From the NCBI GenBank assembly GCA_049584655.1, contig JBAUYF010000007.1:27288-91287 (forward strand): a stretch of 64,000 bases of DNA, written 5' to 3'. Source of the DNA: Thermoplasmata archaeon (GTDB lineage: Archaea > Thermoplasmatota > Thermoplasmata > Lutacidiplasmatales > UBA184). Under the pieces are notes generated by a model. The model was not told where the DNA came from and searched no databases. It saw only the letters and a list, made by a program, of their open reading frames with translations. This document shows positions 12,495-37,044 of this stretch, piece after piece. Within the stretch, counting starts at the first letter, position 1, and each line of letters opens with the position of its first letter. Both the position numbers and the translations under genes were made by a program.

Positions 12495-13421
12495 CTATAG
12501 CGTGAAATGCGACGTCCGCAGCGATTCGATCTGGTCCGAGATGATGGGCCGACCGAGCCGATCGCGAATTCGCCGACGCTGCCGACGCCGCTGCGCGCGT
12601 ACTGCGGCCGTCCAGGCGGCGACGTCAGGCGCGTCCCGTTCGGGTCGAATCCATTGGATCACCTGATCCAGGTCGTGGAGCTTCCCCAAGTCCCGCTGCA
12701 GTCGGACGAGCTGCTCCTGCGCGTCTACGGGACGAGATGTAGCGAGGGCTTCGCGGAAGAGCCGCATTTCGCGGAGCTCCTTGCGCAAGTCATGCAATCG
12801 AGGGGTCGATACGCGGGCGACGGCTCGGTCGAGCGATCGGGAGACCTCGTCCACGCGTCGGAGGAACTCGGCCTCTGTTTGCAGCATCCAGGACCGCGGG
12901 TCCGAGGCTTCGTGTGCTTCGCGGACCAGACCCCGCAACGCGGCGAACGTCTGATCGTCCGTCAGCGCTTGCGCGAACTTGGCCAGCTTGCGTCGACCGG
13001 CGCGAGCCTCCTTCCTAAGTCGCCCGCGCGCGTTCTGAATGCCCTCGGGGCCGATCGATCGCGAATTTCGAGGGGCTGACGGCAGAACCGAAAGACCGAC
13101 ATCCCGATCACGCACTTGCCCGCACAGTCGAGCAAACGTGTTCACCCGCGCCTGGACCTCCTTCGCGAGCTTTCGCGATTCCGGCGAAATTGAGGCACGC
13201 CAGGGGCGGAACAAGACTGACAGGCGACGCAGGTCCCGGTGCAACACGTGGAGCGGCTCCTCGCCAATGGTGGGACGGATGGCCAATGCCGCCACGCGGG
13301 ACTCGATCGACCCGACCAACGATTCGTACCGTTGGAAGGCGCGTTCTTGATCGTCCGCAGGAATCATGGGAGTTCGCCGACCCCTTTCCCTTTCATTTAA
13401 CTTGCTCTCGAGACTTCTCAA
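12495..13421 (-). CDS. CHAD-domain protein (conserved histidine alpha-helical domain)
   Basis: 308 aa, all-alpha, with repeated H..L..LR..R motifs (LHVLHRDLRRLSVLFRPW, LHDLRKELREMRLFREAL) typical of CHAD domains. Confidence 0.6.
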   Translation of the reverse strand: MRSLESKLNERERGRRTPMIPADDQERAFQRYESLVGSIESRVAALAIRPTIGEEPLHVLHRDLRRLSVLFRPWRASISPESRKLAKEVQARVNTFARLCGQVRDRDVGLSVLPSAPRNSRSIGPEGIQNARGRLRKEARAGRRKLAKFAQALTDDQTFAALRGLVREAHEASDPRSWMLQTEAEFLRRVDEVSRSLDRAVARVSTPRLHDLRKELREMRLFREALATSRPVDAQEQLVRLQRDLGKLHDLDQVIQWIRPERDAPDVAAWTAAVRAQRRRQRRRIRDRLGRPIISDQIESLRTSHFTL

Positions 13422-13797
13422 GGCGCAGAGCTGGTCAAATCGTGGTATAACCCCAGCAAGAGAGTTGCGGTAAACTTACCGGACCTCGACGATCGAATGG
13501 CGGATGAACCGAGACGCCGCGCCGTCGACCGATTCGACCAAATTCCTAGTAAAGGTCGCGCCAACTGACGGAAAATTAATCGTGTAGCTCACAGCGCTAC
13601 ATTTGAGGATTGATACTTGTCATGTTGTGCCGTGGCTCGGGGTTAATTGAGCCAATCCGGATTCCACTTTCCCAGTCAGCGTCTTCGCTAAATACCCCTT
13701 CGGAGCTGAACAATCGAGGCAAACCATGGACACGGAGGGAGACAATGCTGCAGATGCAGATAGCCCTGCAGAACGTAGCCATCCGGCGAGCCCATGC

Positions 13798-14056
13798 GGA
13801 CGCTCGCTTCCGCGGTCTTCAGGAGTACCATAACCTGGAGACCCCGCGCGAGGAGTCCTTGTGGCTCGTCGCGCAGGCACGAACCAACCGAACGACGGTG
13901 CCCGCACGGGAATCCGGCGAGTCCCGGTCACTCCGGACTCGGCTTGCGGAGTTCCTCCGCATCGGGGTCTGACACCGAACCTGCCCCTAGGGCACCGTCG
14001 AACCCTTTCCCCCGATTACACCGGGGGAACTACTGAAACCGGCTTAGGAGCGTCCT
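13798..14056 (+). ncRNA. Candidate structured ncRNA (RNase-P-RNA-like 3' motif); identity unresolved
   Basis: Lies within a 620-bp ORF-free gap. The 3' segment ACUGAAACCGGCUUAG resembles the P4 3'-strand consensus ACAGAA(A)CCCGGCUUA. The 8-nt segments GGACGCUC (13798-13805) and GAGCGUCC (~14049-14056) are exact complements and could form P1. Several stable hairpins lie in between. The S-domain conserved blocks were not convincingly found. Confidence 0.2.
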
Positions 14057-14520
14057 TTCGGAGTCCTCTTTCTCTTCAGACGGGCCTTGGCGGCTCGCTC
14101 CTTACGCTTCTCAGCGGCCGTGGGCCATCGGAAGAGCTCGATCCAATTTCCGTCGGGATCTTTGACGTCCGCCACCCATCCCTGGCTCACTTTGAGGTCG
14201 ACCTCAGTAGGACGCGCCCCGTGACCAAGAAGACGGTGATATTCCGCCTCCAATCGGGCGGCCGAAACACTTCCGAGGAGGAATCCAATGTGATCGAGTC
14301 CCTCCCCTGCAGCGTACGGGGCGGCGAATTTCGACTTGCTCGGGTACCAGTTGAGTTCCAGCCGTTGGTGCGACTTGGGATCCTCTAACAGTACCCAGAT
14401 TCCAGCGCCCCACTTTCTCAAGTCGCCTCGAGTCACCTCCCGCAGTCGAAGTCCTCTCGTGTAGAATCGGAGCGATCGCGCCAGGTTCGTCACTCGGATT
14501 CCGGTGTATCGCAGCGGCAT
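14044..14520 (-). CDS. VOC-family (glyoxalase-fold) protein, paralog of 645..1055
   Basis: 158 aa. Same motif set as the paralog (RFY, LELNWYP, LDHIGF, DPDGNWIE) plus a Lys/Arg-rich C-terminal tail. Confidence 0.8.
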   Translation of the reverse strand: MPLRYTGIRVTNLARSLRFYTRGLRLREVTRGDLRKWGAGIWVLLEDPKSHQRLELNWYPSKSKFAAPYAAGEGLDHIGFLLGSVSAARLEAEYHRLLGHGARPTEVDLKVSQGWVADVKDPDGNWIELFRWPTAAEKRKERAAKARLKRKRTPKGRS

Positions 14521-32847: not shown

Positions 32848-33944
32848 GCGGCGCTCCCGAGCCGAGTCGGTCGACGCAGGCGCATCATCGTGTCGAGACC
32901 GGAAGCCCCGATATAGCGCATGCCTAGCGCGAGTAACGGATTGTAGTGGACAATCGTGTCCCCCAAGAGCTTTATCCGATGCGCATTCGCGAGCGGCCCC
33001 GCCAGATGGGCGCGGAGGAGTGTGTCGTATTCCGCAAGGCTCGTTCCCTCCCGAACACTCTTGGCTGCGACGACCCCCGCATCTCGTCCGGAGATCATGG
33101 CGGTCGGGATACCCCCACCGTTGGTCGCCATCACCAGATTGGCCGCGTCGCCGACGAACAGGGCGCGACCCCGCACCGCGCTCGCCGGGGGTGGCCCGAT
33201 CGGAACCCACCAGCGCGTGAGGTCGAATGGTTCGTTCAACCCGAAACGCTGGCGGAAGTGCTCGAGCAGTCGACTTAGCGTTTGGCCGCGGGGGAGCCGC
33301 GCGACCCCTAACCCCACGTTGGCGTCGCTCTCCTTCGGAATGACCCACGCGTAGCCGCCCGGAGCCACCCGCCCGAAGTAGAGGGCGATCTCGTCCGCGA
33401 AGTGGCCCTCTACGGTCGCCGTGATCATCCGAAACATCTCACGAGGAATCGCGAACCCCGTTCCTCGCGCGACGGTCGAGATCGGACCGTCCGCGCCGAT
33501 GATCACCTCCGCGCGGACCGTCGTGCCGCCGGAGAAGGAGATCTCCGAGTCCTGCACACGCGTTACGCCGCACGGAAATCGCAGCTCTGCGCCCGCGCCT
33601 TCCGCTTGATACGCGAGGGCCTTATCGAACGCTCGGCGAGATACCGAGTAACCGTCCAGCGGGAACCGATAGCGACGCCCGTAGGGCGAAACGCAGACCA
33701 TCCAGTGCGTCGCGCGCAGGATCGTTTCGCTCGGTATATCGAACGAATCATCGATAACCTCGGGGCAATCGAACAGATCCTTGAGTTCGGTCGGTGTGGG
33801 GAGGAACTCCCCACACTGTACGGGATGGCCCAGTTCTGGGCGCTGATCGACGAGGAGCGTCTTAGCGCCGTTCCGCGCGGCAAATTTCGCCGCCAAGCTC
33901 CCGCCCGGGCCGGCTCCCACGACCACGACGTCGAAATGCTCCAC
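32844..33944 (-). CDS. Digeranylgeranylglycerophospholipid (geranylgeranyl) reductase, FAD-dependent
   Basis: N-terminal FAD-binding fold VVVVGAGPGGSLAA and a conserved GGR-family core. Paired with the GGPP synthase, which is the archaeal lipid-synthesis context. Confidence 0.9.
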   Translation of the reverse strand: MEHFDVVVVGAGPGGSLAAKFAARNGAKTLLVDQRPELGHPVQCGEFLPTPTELKDLFDCPEVIDDSFDIPSETILRATHWMVCVSPYGRRYRFPLDGYSVSRRAFDKALAYQAEGAGAELRFPCGVTRVQDSEISFSGGTTVRAEVIIGADGPISTVARGTGFAIPREMFRMITATVEGHFADEIALYFGRVAPGGYAWVIPKESDANVGLGVARLPRGQTLSRLLEHFRQRFGLNEPFDLTRWWVPIGPPPASAVRGRALFVGDAANLVMATNGGGIPTAMISGRDAGVVAAKSVREGTSLAEYDTLLRAHLAGPLANAHRIKLLGDTIVHYNPLLALGMRYIGASGLDTMMRLRRPTRLGSAA

Positions 33945-33950
33945 GGCCCT

Positions 33951-35549
33951 TCACGCCCCGACCGCCACGAAATGCTGTGCGGCGGAAGAGATCGCGGCAA
34001 GGACCGGCTGCGGGTAAATGCCCAGCGCCACGATCGCAAAGGTCGCGAGGCCGATCGCCATCGCGCGACCGTACCCGATTCCTCCGAGCGGTAAAGGATC
34101 GGCACCGGACGCGCCCTGAATACCTGCGGTATGCGGAGAACCCGCGATGGCACGGTCGGGTTGGTCCATGTACATCACCTTGAGGACGCGTGCGTAGTAG
34201 AAGACGGATAGGGCGCTATTGAGCAGCCCCGCGATCGCAAGATAGACGAAGAACCCTTGCGCCTGGATCGCGGACGAGAAGAGAATGAATTTCGACACGA
34301 AGCCGATCGTGAGGGGAACGCCGGCGAGCGAGAGTAGCATCAGCGCGAACGACGTACCCAGCAACGGTCGTCGAACCCCGAATCCCTTCCAGTCTTCGAT
34401 GAGGGGGCCGACGCCGAGCGATGCCGCCGCCGCCACGACGAGAAACGCGCCGGCTTTCATGAAGACATGGGCGAAGATCTGGAGGGTAGCACCCGTGATC
34501 GCCGGGGCGGTTCCGATCGTGATCCCGATCAGCATGTAGCCTGCTTGCGAGATCGACGAATAGGCGAGCATTCGCTTCATCGAGCGCTGCATCAAGGCCA
34601 AGACATTCCCCACGGTCATCGTCAGCACGGCCATCGCGCCGAGCGTGATCTGTAGTATCGGCCCGAGGTCCGTGGGGGTCGACCCATTTCCGATCGGACT
34701 TGTCGCGGAGCTTACAAAGAGGACCGGACCCAAGAAGACGAGGAAGAAGGCGAAAAGGCCGATTTTCTTTGTCCCACCGGCGAGGAACGCCGAGACATCA
34801 TTCGGCGCGCCGTCGTAGACATCGACCGCCCATGCGTGGAAGGGAACGGCCGTTACCTTGAACGCCAAGCCGGCGATCAGAAACCCATAGCCGACGAGTA
34901 CGAGGTTCGGCAAGCCGACGGAGCCGCCTTCGGCTCGGATCGCGAAGAGATTCGTCGTTCCATAGGCTCCGAAGATCAGTGACGCTCCGTAGAACGAGAG
35001 CACCGTCGAGAGCGCGCCGATAATGTAGAACTTCATCGCGGCTTCCATGCCACGCGGATCCTTCCGCAGGTAGCCGACCATCAGATACGTGGAGATCCCC
35101 GTGATCTCGATCGCGATCAGCAGAAAGATCAGGTCGGCTGCCACCGCGACCAAGAGCATTCCAAGGGTCGCGATCAAAAGAAGCCCGAAGAACGTCGCCG
35201 CTCCGGGGTCGCGCGAGGGGCGCGAGAGCGACGCGAGTGCTACGAGTAAGGCGCTGACGAGAAAGATCCCTTGGAAGATCAGACCCAACGAGCTGAACGT
35301 AAAGAGGGCAGTCAGTGAAGGATGGAGAGGATCGATCTGCGACGCGGGGATCGTCGCCATCCCGGAGAGCGGCGAAAAGCGTAGGTCCGCCACGACCAAC
35401 AGTAACGCAGCCAGTGTACCCACGACCGCGACCCCGCCGAGCACTTCGAGCCGCCGGACCCCGACGACCTCGAGGAGAAAGACGAGAAGCGCGGCCGCGA
35501 GGAGGATGAGCTCGGGCAGCCATGGAAGGGCGAACGAGGCGAGATTCAT
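33951..35549 (-). CDS. nuoN: NADH-quinone oxidoreductase / Fpo-like complex subunit N
   Basis: About 14 TM helices. Antiporter-like NuoN family, last gene of the operon. Confidence 0.9.
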   Translation of the reverse strand: MNLASFALPWLPELILLAAALLVFLLEVVGVRRLEVLGGVAVVGTLAALLLVVADLRFSPLSGMATIPASQIDPLHPSLTALFTFSSLGLIFQGIFLVSALLVALASLSRPSRDPGAATFFGLLLIATLGMLLVAVAADLIFLLIAIEITGISTYLMVGYLRKDPRGMEAAMKFYIIGALSTVLSFYGASLIFGAYGTTNLFAIRAEGGSVGLPNLVLVGYGFLIAGLAFKVTAVPFHAWAVDVYDGAPNDVSAFLAGGTKKIGLFAFFLVFLGPVLFVSSATSPIGNGSTPTDLGPILQITLGAMAVLTMTVGNVLALMQRSMKRMLAYSSISQAGYMLIGITIGTAPAITGATLQIFAHVFMKAGAFLVVAAAASLGVGPLIEDWKGFGVRRPLLGTSFALMLLSLAGVPLTIGFVSKFILFSSAIQAQGFFVYLAIAGLLNSALSVFYYARVLKVMYMDQPDRAIAGSPHTAGIQGASGADPLPLGGIGYGRAMAIGLATFAIVALGIYPQPVLAAISSAAQHFVAVGA

Positions 35550-35559
35550 GGCCTCCGCC

Positions 35560-37044
35560 TCATGGGAACCCGTACACCGGAGAGTTCGAGATCACGTTCA
35601 CCAAGAGCCCAGGTAAGATCCCGTAAAGCACGATCAGAGCCACGAGGATCGCCATGCCGGCGATCTCGTACCACGGGAGGTCATGGACCCGTTCGGAGAA
35701 TCCCTTCGGCGGACCGAAGAGCGTCCGCTGCATCATCCAGATGTAAAACGCCGCCGTTACCACCAGAATGATGAGGGGCAATAGGACCCAGTAGCCGATC
35801 GCATCCCAGGTGGCGAGGAAAGCGGAGAACTCTGCTGGGAAACTCACCAGCGCGGGAAGCCCTAAGGACGCGAGTGACCCGATCATGATCATCGTAGCTA
35901 AGGTAGGGCTCGCCGGCGTGATGCCGCCGAGCGTGGGGATATCGCGGGTCCCGAAGGTGTGATGGACGCTCCCCGAGGCCATGAAAAGAAGCGCGCTCAC
36001 GACTCCGTGGGCAAACATCAGAAGGACGGCCGCGAGCAGGCCGAGCGACGAGTAGACGGCGATCGCGAGCAGCACGATCCCCATGTGATTGATCGAGGAG
36101 TACGCGACCATTCGCTTCAGGTCCCGCTGCGCGAGCGAGACGAGCGAACCCCAGATGATCGAGGCAAACGCAACGACGTAGAGGAGCGGCGTCAAATGGG
36201 ACATGCCCTGCGGAAGGACCTCCACCGCCCACCGGATCAGCCCGTAGCCCCCGAGCTTGAGGAGGAGGCCCGCAAGAAGAACGGATCCGCCGGTCGGCGC
36301 TTCCACGTGGGCATCCGGCAGCCACGTGTGGAAGGGGACGATCGGGAACTTGACGCCAAAGCCGAAGAAGAGGGCGAGGAATATGAACGATTGGACGACG
36401 GCCGAGAGCCCTTGTGCGGCCGAGAAGATACTCCCAAAGTCGAAGGACGAGGCGCCCGAATAGAACGCCAAGACGAGCAGCCCGGTGAGCATGACGATGC
36501 TCGCAACGTGGGTGTAAATGAAGAACTTGATCGCCGCGTAGCGCCGGTTCGGCCCGCCCCAATAGCCGATGATGAAGAACATCGGGACGAGGACCGCTTC
36601 CCAAAAGAGGAAAAAGAGGAGAATATCGAGGGCGATGAACACCCCGAATGAGCCGAGACATGTCAGGAGAACAAGTCCGAACCAGGCACTCGGCCGCTTG
36701 GACTCGTTCCAGCTGTAGACTACGGTGGCGATCTGAAGGAATCCCGTGAGCAGGATCAGGATGAGACTGATCCCGTCGATCCCGACAGTGTAGTTGATGT
36801 GGAGCCAGTAGAGCGAGATCCATGCGTACGATTCCGTGTAATTGTAGAGCGGAACTCCCGTCGCACTCCGCCCGGCCCAGGAGCCGAATCCGAGGAACAT
36901 TGCGGCGATCTCGATCAGGAAGAGGATCGAGGTGCCGAGCGCCACGTACCGGGCCGATCGCCCCGAGGCGAAGGTCAGGACCGTCCCCAGGACCAGGGTA
37001 GCCAGCGTGAACGAGAGGATCGGGAACACGTCAGCCGCCCCCAA
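35560..37044 (-). CDS. nuoM: Complex I-like subunit M
   Basis: Antiporter-like subunit of 494 aa. Confidence 0.9.
   Translation of the reverse strand: MGAADVFPILSFTLATLVLGTVLTFASGRSARYVALGTSILFLIEIAAMFLGFGSWAGRSATGVPLYNYTESYAWISLYWLHINYTVGIDGISLILILLTGFLQIATVVYSWNESKRPSAWFGLVLLTCLGSFGVFIALDILLFFLFWEAVLVPMFFIIGYWGGPNRRYAAIKFFIYTHVASIVMLTGLLVLAFYSGASSFDFGSIFSAAQGLSAVVQSFIFLALFFGFGVKFPIVPFHTWLPDAHVEAPTGGSVLLAGLLLKLGGYGLIRWAVEVLPQGMSHLTPLLYVVAFASIIWGSLVSLAQRDLKRMVAYSSINHMGIVLLAIAVYSSLGLLAAVLLMFAHGVVSALLFMASGSVHHTFGTRDIPTLGGITPASPTLATMIMIGSLASLGLPALVSFPAEFSAFLATWDAIGYWVLLPLIILVVTAAFYIWMMQRTLFGPPKGFSERVHDLPWYEIAGMAILVALIVLYGILPGLLVNVISNSPVYGFP

Follow-up and report, generated by a model that had tools for sequence, protein, structure and literature searches.

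Between a divergent CHAD gene and a convergent VOC gene (14044-14520, with its stop codon at 14044-14046) lies a block of DNA that is predicted to fold unusually well, and the question it raises is whether it specifies a non-coding RNA, a protein or both. We analyzed it within a window of 64 kb from an uncultured Thermoplasmata archaeon with a genomic G+C content of ~60%. A preliminary description had called the block an ORF-free, highly structured gap in a tightly packed genome and had tentatively proposed an RNase P RNA. Gene density is not unusually tight, since long ORFs (from a crude set) cover ~79% of the window, and the block is not ORF-free: it holds a conserved + strand ORF of 75 codons with a coding pattern of substitution (Table 1). 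Gene calling picked up this ORF on each of the six contigs with the identical neighbouring gene, and the NCBI entry for its product reads hypothetical protein. We found nine distinct relatives, eight of them at the same genomic position, and the flanking CHAD and VOC genes are common to most of these loci. With about 10 sequences, all from a small number of uncultured soil lineages, the family is small. A degenerate DNA pattern search of genome_contigs led to two Thermoplasmata MAGs, two pattern scans of metagenome_contigs gave no further relatives, and the element is thus restricted to a narrow clade of a few soil Thermoplasmata.

Table 1. Features of the locus, numbered from the first base of the window
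Feature	Position	Strand	Remarks
Palindrome TGTAGC-N7-GCTACA	13583..13601	.	~115 nt upstream of predicted transcription start
Promoter block TTTCCnnGTnnnCGnnnnCGCTAAATAC	13668..13695	+	Conserved; TATA-like TAAATA at 13689-13694
5' leader GAGGCAAACCATGGACACGGAGGGAGACA	13716..13744	+	Predicted; 29 nt; Shine-Dalgarno-like GGAGGGAGAC at 13734-13743
Small ORF, 75 codons	13745..13972	+	ATG to TGA; publicly annotated as hypothetical protein
Small hairpin CUGCAG-N12-CUGCAG	13748..13771	+	Codons 2-9, right after start codon
Long hairpin, 41 base pairs	13774..13881	+	Codons 11-46; apical loop AGUACCAUAA at 13824-13833
3' multi-stem domain	13894..13999	+	Closed by helix X (13894-13902) with Y (13991-13999)
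P2	13908-13910 with 13984-13986	+	Inside 3' multi-stem domain
Hairpin A	13918-13941	+	Inside 3' multi-stem domain
Hairpin B	13945-13961	+	Inside 3' multi-stem domain
Hairpin C	13962-13978	+	Inside 3' multi-stem domain; loop holds stop codon TGA (13970-13972)
C/U-rich motif AACCCUUUCCC	14001..14011	+	Conserved; UUUCCC 14006-14011 predicted partner of GGGAGA 13737-13742
Terminal hairpin UUCCCCCG-AUUACAC-CGGGGGAA	14007..14029	+	Purine-rich 3' arm resembles Shine-Dalgarno-like sequence
Supposed P4 3' strand (14032-14047) and P1 3' strand (14048-14055)	14032..14055	.	Chance resemblance, outside element

The substitution pattern indicates purifying selection on the protein across the first two thirds of the ORF. 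Eight homologues have 72-76 amino acids and 55-86% identity, and one more has 96 amino acids. Frame 0 is the sole frame open in all nine sequences, with conserved stops in the other two. The minimum numbers of changes at the three codon positions of codons 5-47 were 8/11/25 (p = 0.004), and the excess at third positions persisted inside paired columns (3/7/18, p = 0.007). N-terminal replacements are mostly conservative (I/V, H/Y, Q/R, D/E), and a 3-nt indel in one orthologue (L014) keeps the reading frame. Codons 48-75, by comparison, are near-neutral at the protein level (dN/dS about 0.2-1.4). In L018, the most distant relative, the ORF is longer (96 codons) and begins with TTG instead of ATG. 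Its substitutions relative to the window show no preference among codon positions (10/11/11), and this makes the case for coding weaker in that lineage. We also considered three other accounts of the conserved sequence. An upstream ORF of 35 codons, running from an invariant ATG at 13726 to an invariant TAA in the apical loop, was rejected because variable sites occupy its first codon position. Antisense coding was likewise set aside, as the sole frame in which third positions match the variable sites has a stop between 13782 and 13819. Recent horizontal transfer does not account for the low divergence, given how far the flanks and the last third of the ORF have diverged.

The product itself belongs to no known family: a search of the 75-amino acid sequence against Pfam, NCBIfam, PADLOC and PDB profiles gave no usable match, and a profile search of 1.84 billion representatives returned the family itself plus one protein, P0009, from which a search returned only P0009. 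The AlphaFold model consists of four short helices with poor confidence (pLDDT 63). The sequence is hydrophilic and arginine-rich (12 Arg, 8 Glu) and lacks a hydrophobic segment of the length that a membrane helix requires.

The small gene appears to have a promoter of its own. CGCTAAATA is unchanged in all nine sequences, the distant L018 included, and the conserved leader starts 21 nt from TAAATA both in the window and in L018, whose spacer sequences are unlike. Judging by the spacing known for archaeal TATA boxes, we infer that the conserved block around TAAATA is this promoter. Sequence conservation starts at 13716 and CGGAGGGAGAC is invariant in nine of nine sequences; transcription probably begins near this position. 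On the same reading, the AT-richer proximal part of the block is a promoter and regulatory region that also serves the divergent CHAD gene. The start codon of the small ORF lies at a fixed distance from the Shine-Dalgarno-like sequence. In a crude scan, GGAGG-like motifs preceded only about half of the long ORFs, many of them at dubious starts, and the use of Shine-Dalgarno pairing in this lineage is putative.

The claim that the block is highly structured proved correct, far beyond chance. The predicted transcript (13716-14040) has a folding z of -6.34, compared to a mean of -0.15 (sd 1.19, minimum -3.28) for 194 control windows of 325 nt each taken across the 64 kb on both strands, so that it is by a wide margin the most structured 325 nt of the window. 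The interval 13798-14057, with a folding energy of -133 kcal/mol, has z = -6.85 on the + strand and -4.1 on the - strand, and the better folding of the + strand fits the presence of G-U pairs in a + strand RNA. The predicted transcript of ~330 bases is folded almost end to end, and this fold is retained across related soil archaea, with the same helices recovered in separate folds of each orthologue. Moreover, synonymous change is suppressed: pS in codons 5-47 was 0.03-0.26, whereas the flanking genes gave 0.51-0.78 for the same genome pairs (CHAD dN/dS values involving the window were left out), and in the long-hairpin codons it was 5-20 times below that of neighbouring genes. Suppressed synonymous change together with covariation shows, at the level of sequence comparison, selection on the RNA. 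By eye, we saw no motifs matching an archaeal bulge-helix-bulge intron or a C/D-box RNA.

Two hairpins lie within the first two thirds of the coding region. The small CUGCAG hairpin is predicted by RNAalifold and by most single-sequence folds, and four orthologues have its register one base off (UGCAGG/CCUGCA). The long hairpin (-58.1 kcal/mol) has z = -4.84 on the + strand and -2.94 on the - strand. Across the alignment, 93.8% of its cells are paired, compared to 33-48% with slid partners, and seven of eight orthologues keep more pairs than a random placement of the same substitutions (P = 0.001-0.064). In L018, we observed two compensatory double changes in this hairpin, GC to AU and UA to AU. 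The shuffle control was not significant here because the sequence is too conserved, and an inverted-repeat finder did not detect this hairpin because it cannot handle bulges.

The 3' multi-stem domain carries the covariation. Its architecture is identical in separate minimum free energy folds of all eight orthologues, and a covariance model built from six sequences recovers the divergent L013 (38.8 bits, E = 1.7e-7). In the model-guided alignment, double changes occur in 13 of 35 pairs, compared to 1-3 pairs in slid controls, a count that leans towards the structure since the pairs were counted on a model-fitted alignment. None of 500 shuffles reached any of five measures of covariation. Helix X/Y is 100% paired, with four of nine pairs compensatory; the cognate duplex of L013 has an energy of -21.6 kcal/mol, whereas its X with the Y of other orthologues gives -7.8 to -16.6 and its Y with the X of others -8.1 to -17.9 kcal/mol. 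Two of the three perfect hairpins reported in the preliminary description fall in this domain, GAGTCC-CGG-tcact-CCG-GACTC at 13919-13940, which has one bulged C, and GCGGAG-ttc-CTCCGC at 13946-13960; the third, CCCCC...GGGGG, is present at 14009-14027. Folding z-scores and the separate folds of the orthologues support the general idea of that description, a conserved structured RNA, as do the compensatory base changes that it had proposed looking for in relatives.

Downstream of this domain, AACCnTTTCC is retained in all eight orthologues, including L013 and L014, which have a different downstream gene; this 3' untranslated motif is conserved, while the adjoining coding part is not. In the RNAalifold consensus fold, the C/U-rich motif pairs with the Shine-Dalgarno-like bases. 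GGGAGA pairs with UUUCCC at a probability of 1.0 in L011, close to 0.9 in L013 and 0.43 in the window; in the other five the value is at most 0.3 and GGGAGA pairs elsewhere. Neither strand of this helix varies, which leaves no room for covariation. In the thermodynamic ensembles of all eight orthologues, the bases of GGAGGGAGAC are predominantly paired. That the 3' motif pairs the Shine-Dalgarno-like bases with P > 0.4 in only three of eight orthologues is a weak point of any model in which this motif occludes them. The terminal hairpin occupies the terminal position in every orthologue with a different sequence in each, its 3' arm being GGAAGGAGA in L009, GGGAGAG in L016 and GGGGAGGGGGA in L015, and in most orthologues T-runs lie further downstream.

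The explanation we prefer, at slightly better than even confidence, is that the locus encodes not an RNase P RNA but a structured mRNA for a small protein, possibly a dual-function RNA, with a fold that restrains translation. The TATA-like box would start a + strand transcript near 13716, made up of the 29-nt leader with its GGAGGGAGAC, the 75-codon ORF and a structured 3' end that reaches at least 14029. Two constraints would act on the same bases, purifying selection on the protein and maintenance of a defined RNA fold over nearly the whole RNA, and the 3' multi-stem domain would enclose the variable C-terminal codons, with the stop codon exposed in a loop. Once the RNA has folded, the ribosome-binding bases may be sequestered, by the 3' C/U-rich motif in one arrangement and by the 5' arm of the long hairpin in the other. 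We propose that this pairing would keep translation at a low level and that a helicase, a binding partner, temperature or 3' trimming would relieve it by opening the fold. A further, non-coding role may come from the stability of the fold, and the RNA would then be a dual-function one.

A rather less probable reading, although one that we take seriously, is that the locus represents a new family of ~330-nt structured RNAs of soil Thermoplasmata, in which the fold is the primary product of selection and the ORF is secondary or lineage-specific. If so, the invariant apical loop, the leader and the C/U motif would be contact sites for a partner. L018 fits such a primacy of the RNA: its protein sequence drifts without codon-position bias in the substitutions, and compensatory substitutions that replace amino acids preserve its base pairs.

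It is less likely again that this is a purely non-coding structured RNA of ~330 nt with an ORF that is tolerated and untranslated, in which GGAGGGAGAC and UUUCCC would form a closing helix. Such an RNA would accommodate L018, with its even spread of changes, its TTG in place of ATG and its radical replacements (G24E/L25I with T33F/P34R), which are exactly those that preserve two base pairs. It would also accommodate a dN/dS near 1 in codons 48-75 while the RNA helices there covary, aligned stops (UGA/UAA/UAG) that could equally be a URR loop motif, and a protein with no relatives beyond the clade among 1.84 billion representatives. However, the excess of changes at third codon positions, overall and within paired columns, argues for coding, as do the single frame open in nine of nine sequences, the mostly conservative N-terminal replacements and the fixed distance of the start codon from the Shine-Dalgarno-like sequence.

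We consider it improbable that the ORF is an ordinary small protein gene whose structure is a functionless by-product of high G+C. Short perfect hairpins are common in DNA of ~60% G+C, and the long hairpin did not stand out from its shuffles, but high G+C leaves unexplained a folding z-score of -6.3 where the minimum among control windows of the same genome was -3.3, the 13 compensatory pairs that 0 of 500 shuffles reached, synonymous sites 5-20 times more conserved than those of neighbouring genes, and a 3' untranslated motif that is conserved next to coding sequence that is not.

There is little to recommend the idea that the long inverted repeat acts as DNA, for instance by binding a dimeric protein, by forming a cruciform or in recombination. 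Its arms of ~50 nt are very highly conserved and so is the unpaired apical loop, but several conserved + strand G-U pairs would be A-C mismatches in DNA or in the - strand, folding is stronger for the + strand, on which most one-sided changes are also compatible with wobble pairing, and the covarying 3' domain and promoter geometry indicate a transcript.

The proposal of a minimal RNase P RNA we regard as virtually untenable: ACUGAAACCGGCUUAG (14032-14047) does resemble the consensus of the conserved CR-V/P4 3' strand, and complementarity over 8 nt could close an RNA of 259 nt, but no RNase P model matches even at E ≤ 10, both supposed 3' strands sit at the end of the VOC gene and are not conserved, the core of the supposed RNA is a protein-coding ORF, and the element is limited to a narrow clade, whereas RNase P RNA is, to our knowledge, near-universal. 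Specifically, the sequences taken for the P4 strand (ACTGAAACCGGCTTAG, at 14032-14047) and for P1 (GGACGCTC at 13798-13805 with its complement GAGCGTCC at 14048-14055) are present as reported. The P4 stretch overlaps the 3' end of VOC and the complement falls in its last codons; the interval 14032-14055, which spans the VOC stop codon and last codons, differs completely in L011, L009, L016, L015, L007, L013 and L014. Rfam searches assigned no RNase P, SRP, tmRNA or other family to the 64-kb window at gathering score, to 13200-14300 at E ≤ 10 or to five orthologous loci at E ≤ 5, and gave only noise (CRISPR-DR, mir-2796, Ms1 at 10-16 bits). The element is like archaeal RNase P RNA (Rfam RF00373 and its clan) in length (about 260-330 nt), high G+C, several hairpins and a 16-nt stretch similar to the P4 3' strand. 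It differs in having no covariance-model match, resembling stretches that are unconserved and overlap another gene, a coding core and a distribution confined to a few soil Thermoplasmata.

The structured mRNA that we favor has partial likenesses to two known systems. In the Gerdes-lab model of hok/sok, a small ORF reportedly lies on a compact structured mRNA whose 3' element folds back onto the 5' initiation region, and these bacterial type I toxin mRNAs are said to show nucleotide-level conservation and covariation within the coding region. Here we likewise found a small ORF on a (predicted) compact, strongly structured RNA, with nucleotide-level conservation and covariation inside the coding region. 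A fold-back of a 3' element onto the 5' initiation region is predicted strongly in only three of eight orthologues. In contrast to the small hydrophobic, membrane-active toxins, the product is hydrophilic and arginine-rich. By eye, no - strand TATA-like box for an antisense promoter occurs within 13716-14060, and the sequence gives no sign of an antisense RNA. The host is an archaeon, and we know of no type I system established in archaea.

Dual-function RNAs, such as SgrS/SgrT, SR1/SR1P and AzuCR, are small RNAs that also encode small proteins (PMC12612679, PMC12310071), and we count the archaeal 'spRNAs' of Methanosarcina mazei (PMC11456600; bioRxiv 10.1101/2025.10.28.685009) among them. This locus shares with them a conserved small ORF under protein-level selection (putatively translated), a short independent transcript (predicted) and RNA-level features. 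Known dual-function RNAs, however, mostly separate the coding from the base-pairing parts or are modestly structured, whereas here a 41-bp hairpin is formed by the coding sequence itself and the covarying 3' domain overlaps the C-terminal codons.

Few archaeal transcripts are documented as selected both as a coding message and as a defined RNA fold, and here the two signals coincide at the same bases, with coding periodicity on one side and strongly suppressed synonymous change and compensatory pairs on the other. Since the family consists of about 10 sequences with no functional link, its immediate reach is limited. The model of a ribosome-binding site hidden by the fold is testable. The locus is also a warning for annotation, in that an RNA element can go unseen behind a 75-amino acid "hypothetical protein", just as a gene can behind a "structured intergenic block".

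We also noted a palindrome upstream of the promoter. The GTGTAGC...GCTACA block is retained in eight orthologous loci, where the surrounding intergenic DNA is unalignable. Its left arm is altered (TGTCGC) without compensation in L015 and L007, a pattern more in keeping with a DNA site than with an RNA hairpin, and the palindrome is a candidate regulator-binding site.

The preliminary description treated the gap between the CHAD-domain and VOC genes, which from the positions and strands of the two genes lies upstream of the former and downstream of the latter, as an ORF-free structured block. It is not ORF-free: a plus-strand ORF of 75 codons, with the Shine-Dalgarno-like sequence GGAGGGAGAC just before it (13734-13743), is called as a gene on 6 of 6 public contigs and is present in NCBI as a hypothetical protein. 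The VOC protein is identical on these six contigs (e.g., JBAUXN010000013.1, assembly GCA_049584295.1, NCBI label "Thermoplasmata archaeon"), and their intergenic DNA varies at only 5 positions, so they were of no use for comparison.

More divergent relatives were few. A protein search with the ORF yielded seven more clusters (72-76 aa, 55-86% identity), profile searching of 1.84 billion representatives contributed a single further member, the more distant P0009 (96 aa), and one orthologous locus, L016, was obtained by a DNA pattern scan. We found the ORF between CHAD and VOC at the orthologous loci L007, L009, L011 and L016, as in the window. At L012 the contig is cut at the ORF and only VOC is seen, downstream; at L013 CHAD is retained and VOC replaced; at L014 the downstream gene differs and the contig is too short to show the upstream side; and at L018, the most distant locus, the gene upstream bears no relation to CHAD. 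Since the neighbours vary in L013, L014 and L018, the conserved unit is the small element itself. It falls into no Rfam or protein family, and is a new variant, narrowly distributed, of a known kind of object.

When the orthologous loci were aligned, intergenic DNA was mostly unalignable apart from a few blocks (see table), and the hairpin past the post-stop block had a different sequence in each orthologue. In archaeal promoters the centre of the TATA box lies about 26 nt before the transcription start; from this geometry and the position of TAAATA, we predict that the transcript starts at about 13716, where conservation begins. Both CGCTAAATA and the 21-nt spacing are kept in distant L018. 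The palindrome, whose left arm varies in L015 and L007 with no compensation, is probably a regulator-binding site. The block on the CHAD side has a TAAAT core identical to that in the small gene's box and looks like a CHAD promoter, in which case the CHAD leader would be very short.

Features of the gap and its flanks (window positions)
Feature	Position	Strand	Basis or remark
CHAD-domain gene	12495-13367	-	other side of gap from VOC
TAAAT-containing block AGCAAGTTAAATGAAAG	13390-13406	-	just upstream of CHAD start codon (13367); kept in L011, L009, L015, L007
Palindrome TGTAGC-N7-GCTACA	13583-13601		between divergent CHAD gene and small gene; conserved in 8 orthologous loci
Conserved block ending in CGCTAAATAC	13686-13695	+	alignment
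Predicted leader GAGGCAAACCATGGACACGGAGGGAGACA	13716-13744	+	begins 21 nt after TAAATA; alignment
ORF	13745-13972	+	alignment
Hairpin CUGCAG-N12-CUGCAG	13748-13771	+	directly after start codon
Long hairpin, 41 bp, codons 11-46	13774-13881	+	invariant 10-nt loop
Helix X/Y, closing 3' domain	13894-13902 with 13991-13999	+	folds and covariation
Post-stop block GGCACCGTCnAACCnTTTCC	13991-14010	+	alignment
C/U-rich motif AACCCUUUCCC	14001-14011	+	pairs with Shine-Dalgarno-like GGGAGA in consensus fold
Terminal hairpin	14007-14029	+	purine-rich 3' arm, like Shine-Dalgarno-like sequence in several orthologues
VOC gene	14044-14520	-	Pfam Glyoxalase/VOC

Of the three frames, frame 0 alone is open in every one of the nine sequences, with stops at conserved places interrupting the other two; the frame-0 stop falls in the same column in eight sequences, varying as TGA, TAA or TAG, and L014 carries a 3-nt insertion in the ORF. 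Over codons 5-47, minimum changes at the three codon positions numbered 8, 11 and 25 (chi-square P = 0.004), or 3, 7 and 18 in base-paired columns only (P = 0.007), and amino-acid replacements were largely conservative. Counting against coding are the dN/dS of codons 48-75 (about 0.2-1.4) and the ORF of L018, which has TTG for ATG at its start, runs to 96 codons and has its differences from the window distributed evenly among the three codon positions (10/11/11). Also on that side, we found no family match for the small protein in Pfam, NCBIfam, PADLOC or PDB, and its AlphaFold model has four helices at a pLDDT of 63. From these sequence measures we conclude that the main clade has a coding ORF whose C-terminal third is under weak constraint. 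A purely non-coding RNA in which the ORF is tolerated is a serious alternative; L018 and the near-neutrality of the C-terminal codons speak for it.

Synonymous sites of codons 5-47 are conserved 5-20 times more than those of neighbouring genes: the proportion of synonymous differences was 0.03-0.26 in these codons, compared to 0.51-0.78 (dN/dS 0.04-0.15) in a 197-aa gene, VOC and a 111-aa gene in the same genome pairs. Recent transfer does not explain this low divergence, given how far both flanks and the last third of the ORF have diverged. The promoter-like box and the small ORF with its coding signature are conserved, and nucleotide-level constraint is strong.

The strong structure in the preliminary description held up, and its listed sequence features were all found to within one base. 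Folding z was -6.85 for 13798-14057 on the plus strand (-4.1 on the minus strand) and -6.34 for the predicted transcript (13716-14040, plus strand), compared to a mean of -0.15 (sd 1.19, minimum -3.28) in 194 control windows of 325 nt taken from both strands along the entire 64 kb. This background distribution, together with the covariation described below, makes it unlikely that the element is an ordinary gene whose structure is incidental; the strand asymmetry of folding argues against a palindrome acting at the DNA level.

The RNA fold is conserved, with compensatory changes in its 3' domain. RNAalifold on eight transcripts and a separate fold of each orthologue agreed on five elements. The long hairpin (-58.1 kcal/mol; z = -4.84 on the plus strand vs -2.94 on the minus strand) had 93.8% of its cells paired, compared to 33-48% in slid controls. 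Its covariation is thin because the sequence barely varies: the only double changes are two in L018, where G24E/L25I in one arm is answered by T33F/P34R in the opposite arm, and the shuffle control was not significant. More pairs survived than with random placement of the same substitutions in 7 of 8 orthologues (P = 0.001-0.064; not mutually independent), and the lower stem can refold as two local hairpins in three orthologues.

Through helix X/Y, codons 50-53 are tied to the conserved block in the 3' untranslated region; the domain closed by this helix contains hairpins A and B (both noted in the preliminary description), hairpin C, with the stop codon in its loop, and a short helix. Each orthologue folded alone reproduced this architecture, and a covariance model of six sequences recovered L013 (38.8 bits, E = 1.7e-7) and, weakly, L014. 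In the model-guided alignment, 13 of 35 pairs changed on both sides (slid controls, 1-3), and none of 500 shuffles reached any of five measures; these counts come from a model-fitted alignment, a concern reduced by the independent single-sequence folds. In helix X/Y, 100% of cells were paired and four of nine pairs were compensatory. For L013, the cognate X/Y duplex (-21.6 kcal/mol) was clearly stronger than mismatched ones (own X with other Y, -7.8 to -16.6; own Y with other X, -8.1 to -17.9).

The preliminary reading was partly right in that a conserved structured RNA is present, but its specific identification as RNase P RNA is rejected. Rfam 15 gave no match in the whole window at gathering score, four noise matches (10-16 bits) in 13200-14300 at E ≤ 10, none of them RNase P, SRP or tmRNA, and nothing in five orthologous loci at E ≤ 5. 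The supposed P4 3' strand (14032-14047) includes the VOC stop codon (14044-14046) and the P1 3' strand (14048-14055) codes the last VOC residues; both are unrelated sequence in orthologues.

We consider the element most likely a structured small-protein mRNA, predicted to be kept in a poorly translatable state. Computed ensembles have the GGAGGGAGAC bases mostly paired in each of the eight orthologues. Pairing with the 3' motif has a high probability only in L011 (1.0) and L013 (0.9), and one of 0.43 in the window; in other orthologues these bases pair instead with the long hairpin's 5' arm. The start codon is usually unpaired, and the codons right after it lie within a hairpin. Translation would be limited by this fold. 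The transcript possibly has a second, RNA-level role, making it a dual-function RNA, a reviewed class (PMC12612679) whose loose definition it fits on the coding side only; archaeal small-protein RNAs have also been described (PMC11456600). In logic it appears to resemble most closely the hok-type type I toxin mRNAs, which likewise combine a small ORF and compact fold with covariation within coding sequence and with a 3' element folded back onto the initiation region (here predicted with high probability in only some orthologues), but two defining features differ, since the peptide here is not a hydrophobic one and no antisense RNA can be seen.

At the VOC side, a plus-strand gene lies in VOC's place downstream of the small gene in L013 (2578-3110) and L014 (566-712). 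Both loci keep the AACCnTTTCC motif, terminal hairpin and T-run, which thus belong to the small gene rather than to VOC. The VOC C-terminal tail is Lys/Arg-rich (window 14044-14100; L011, L009, L016, L015), and its AAA/AAG codons form plus-strand T-runs. Since these sit 40-60 nt past the terminal hairpin, the 3' ends of the convergent transcripts probably overlap, and transcription of the small gene may stop at the T-runs.

We also noted that the CHAD orthologue of L007 (3747-4752) consists of two overlapping ORFs (142 and 209 aa), possibly a frameshift, pseudogene or assembly error. L018 (818-1154), on a forest-soil contig, has a different, larger 3' domain with its own closing helix, and its contig ends 17 nt past the stop, before the position of the C/U motif. 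The next most structured 325-nt windows among the background controls (z about -3.0 to -3.3) start at 33661 (+), 33001 (-), 35641 (-), 34981 (+) and 661 (-), several grouped at about 33001-35965 and another at 661-985. Finally, an ATG at 13726-13728, invariant in 9 of 9 sequences, begins an ORF of 35 codons in a frame different from that of the small gene (13726-13833, plus strand), which stops at an invariant TAA within the long hairpin's apical loop. Substitutions there are not distributed as expected for coding in that frame; base-pairing of the ATGG at 13726 with apical-loop CCRU could instead form a pseudoknot.
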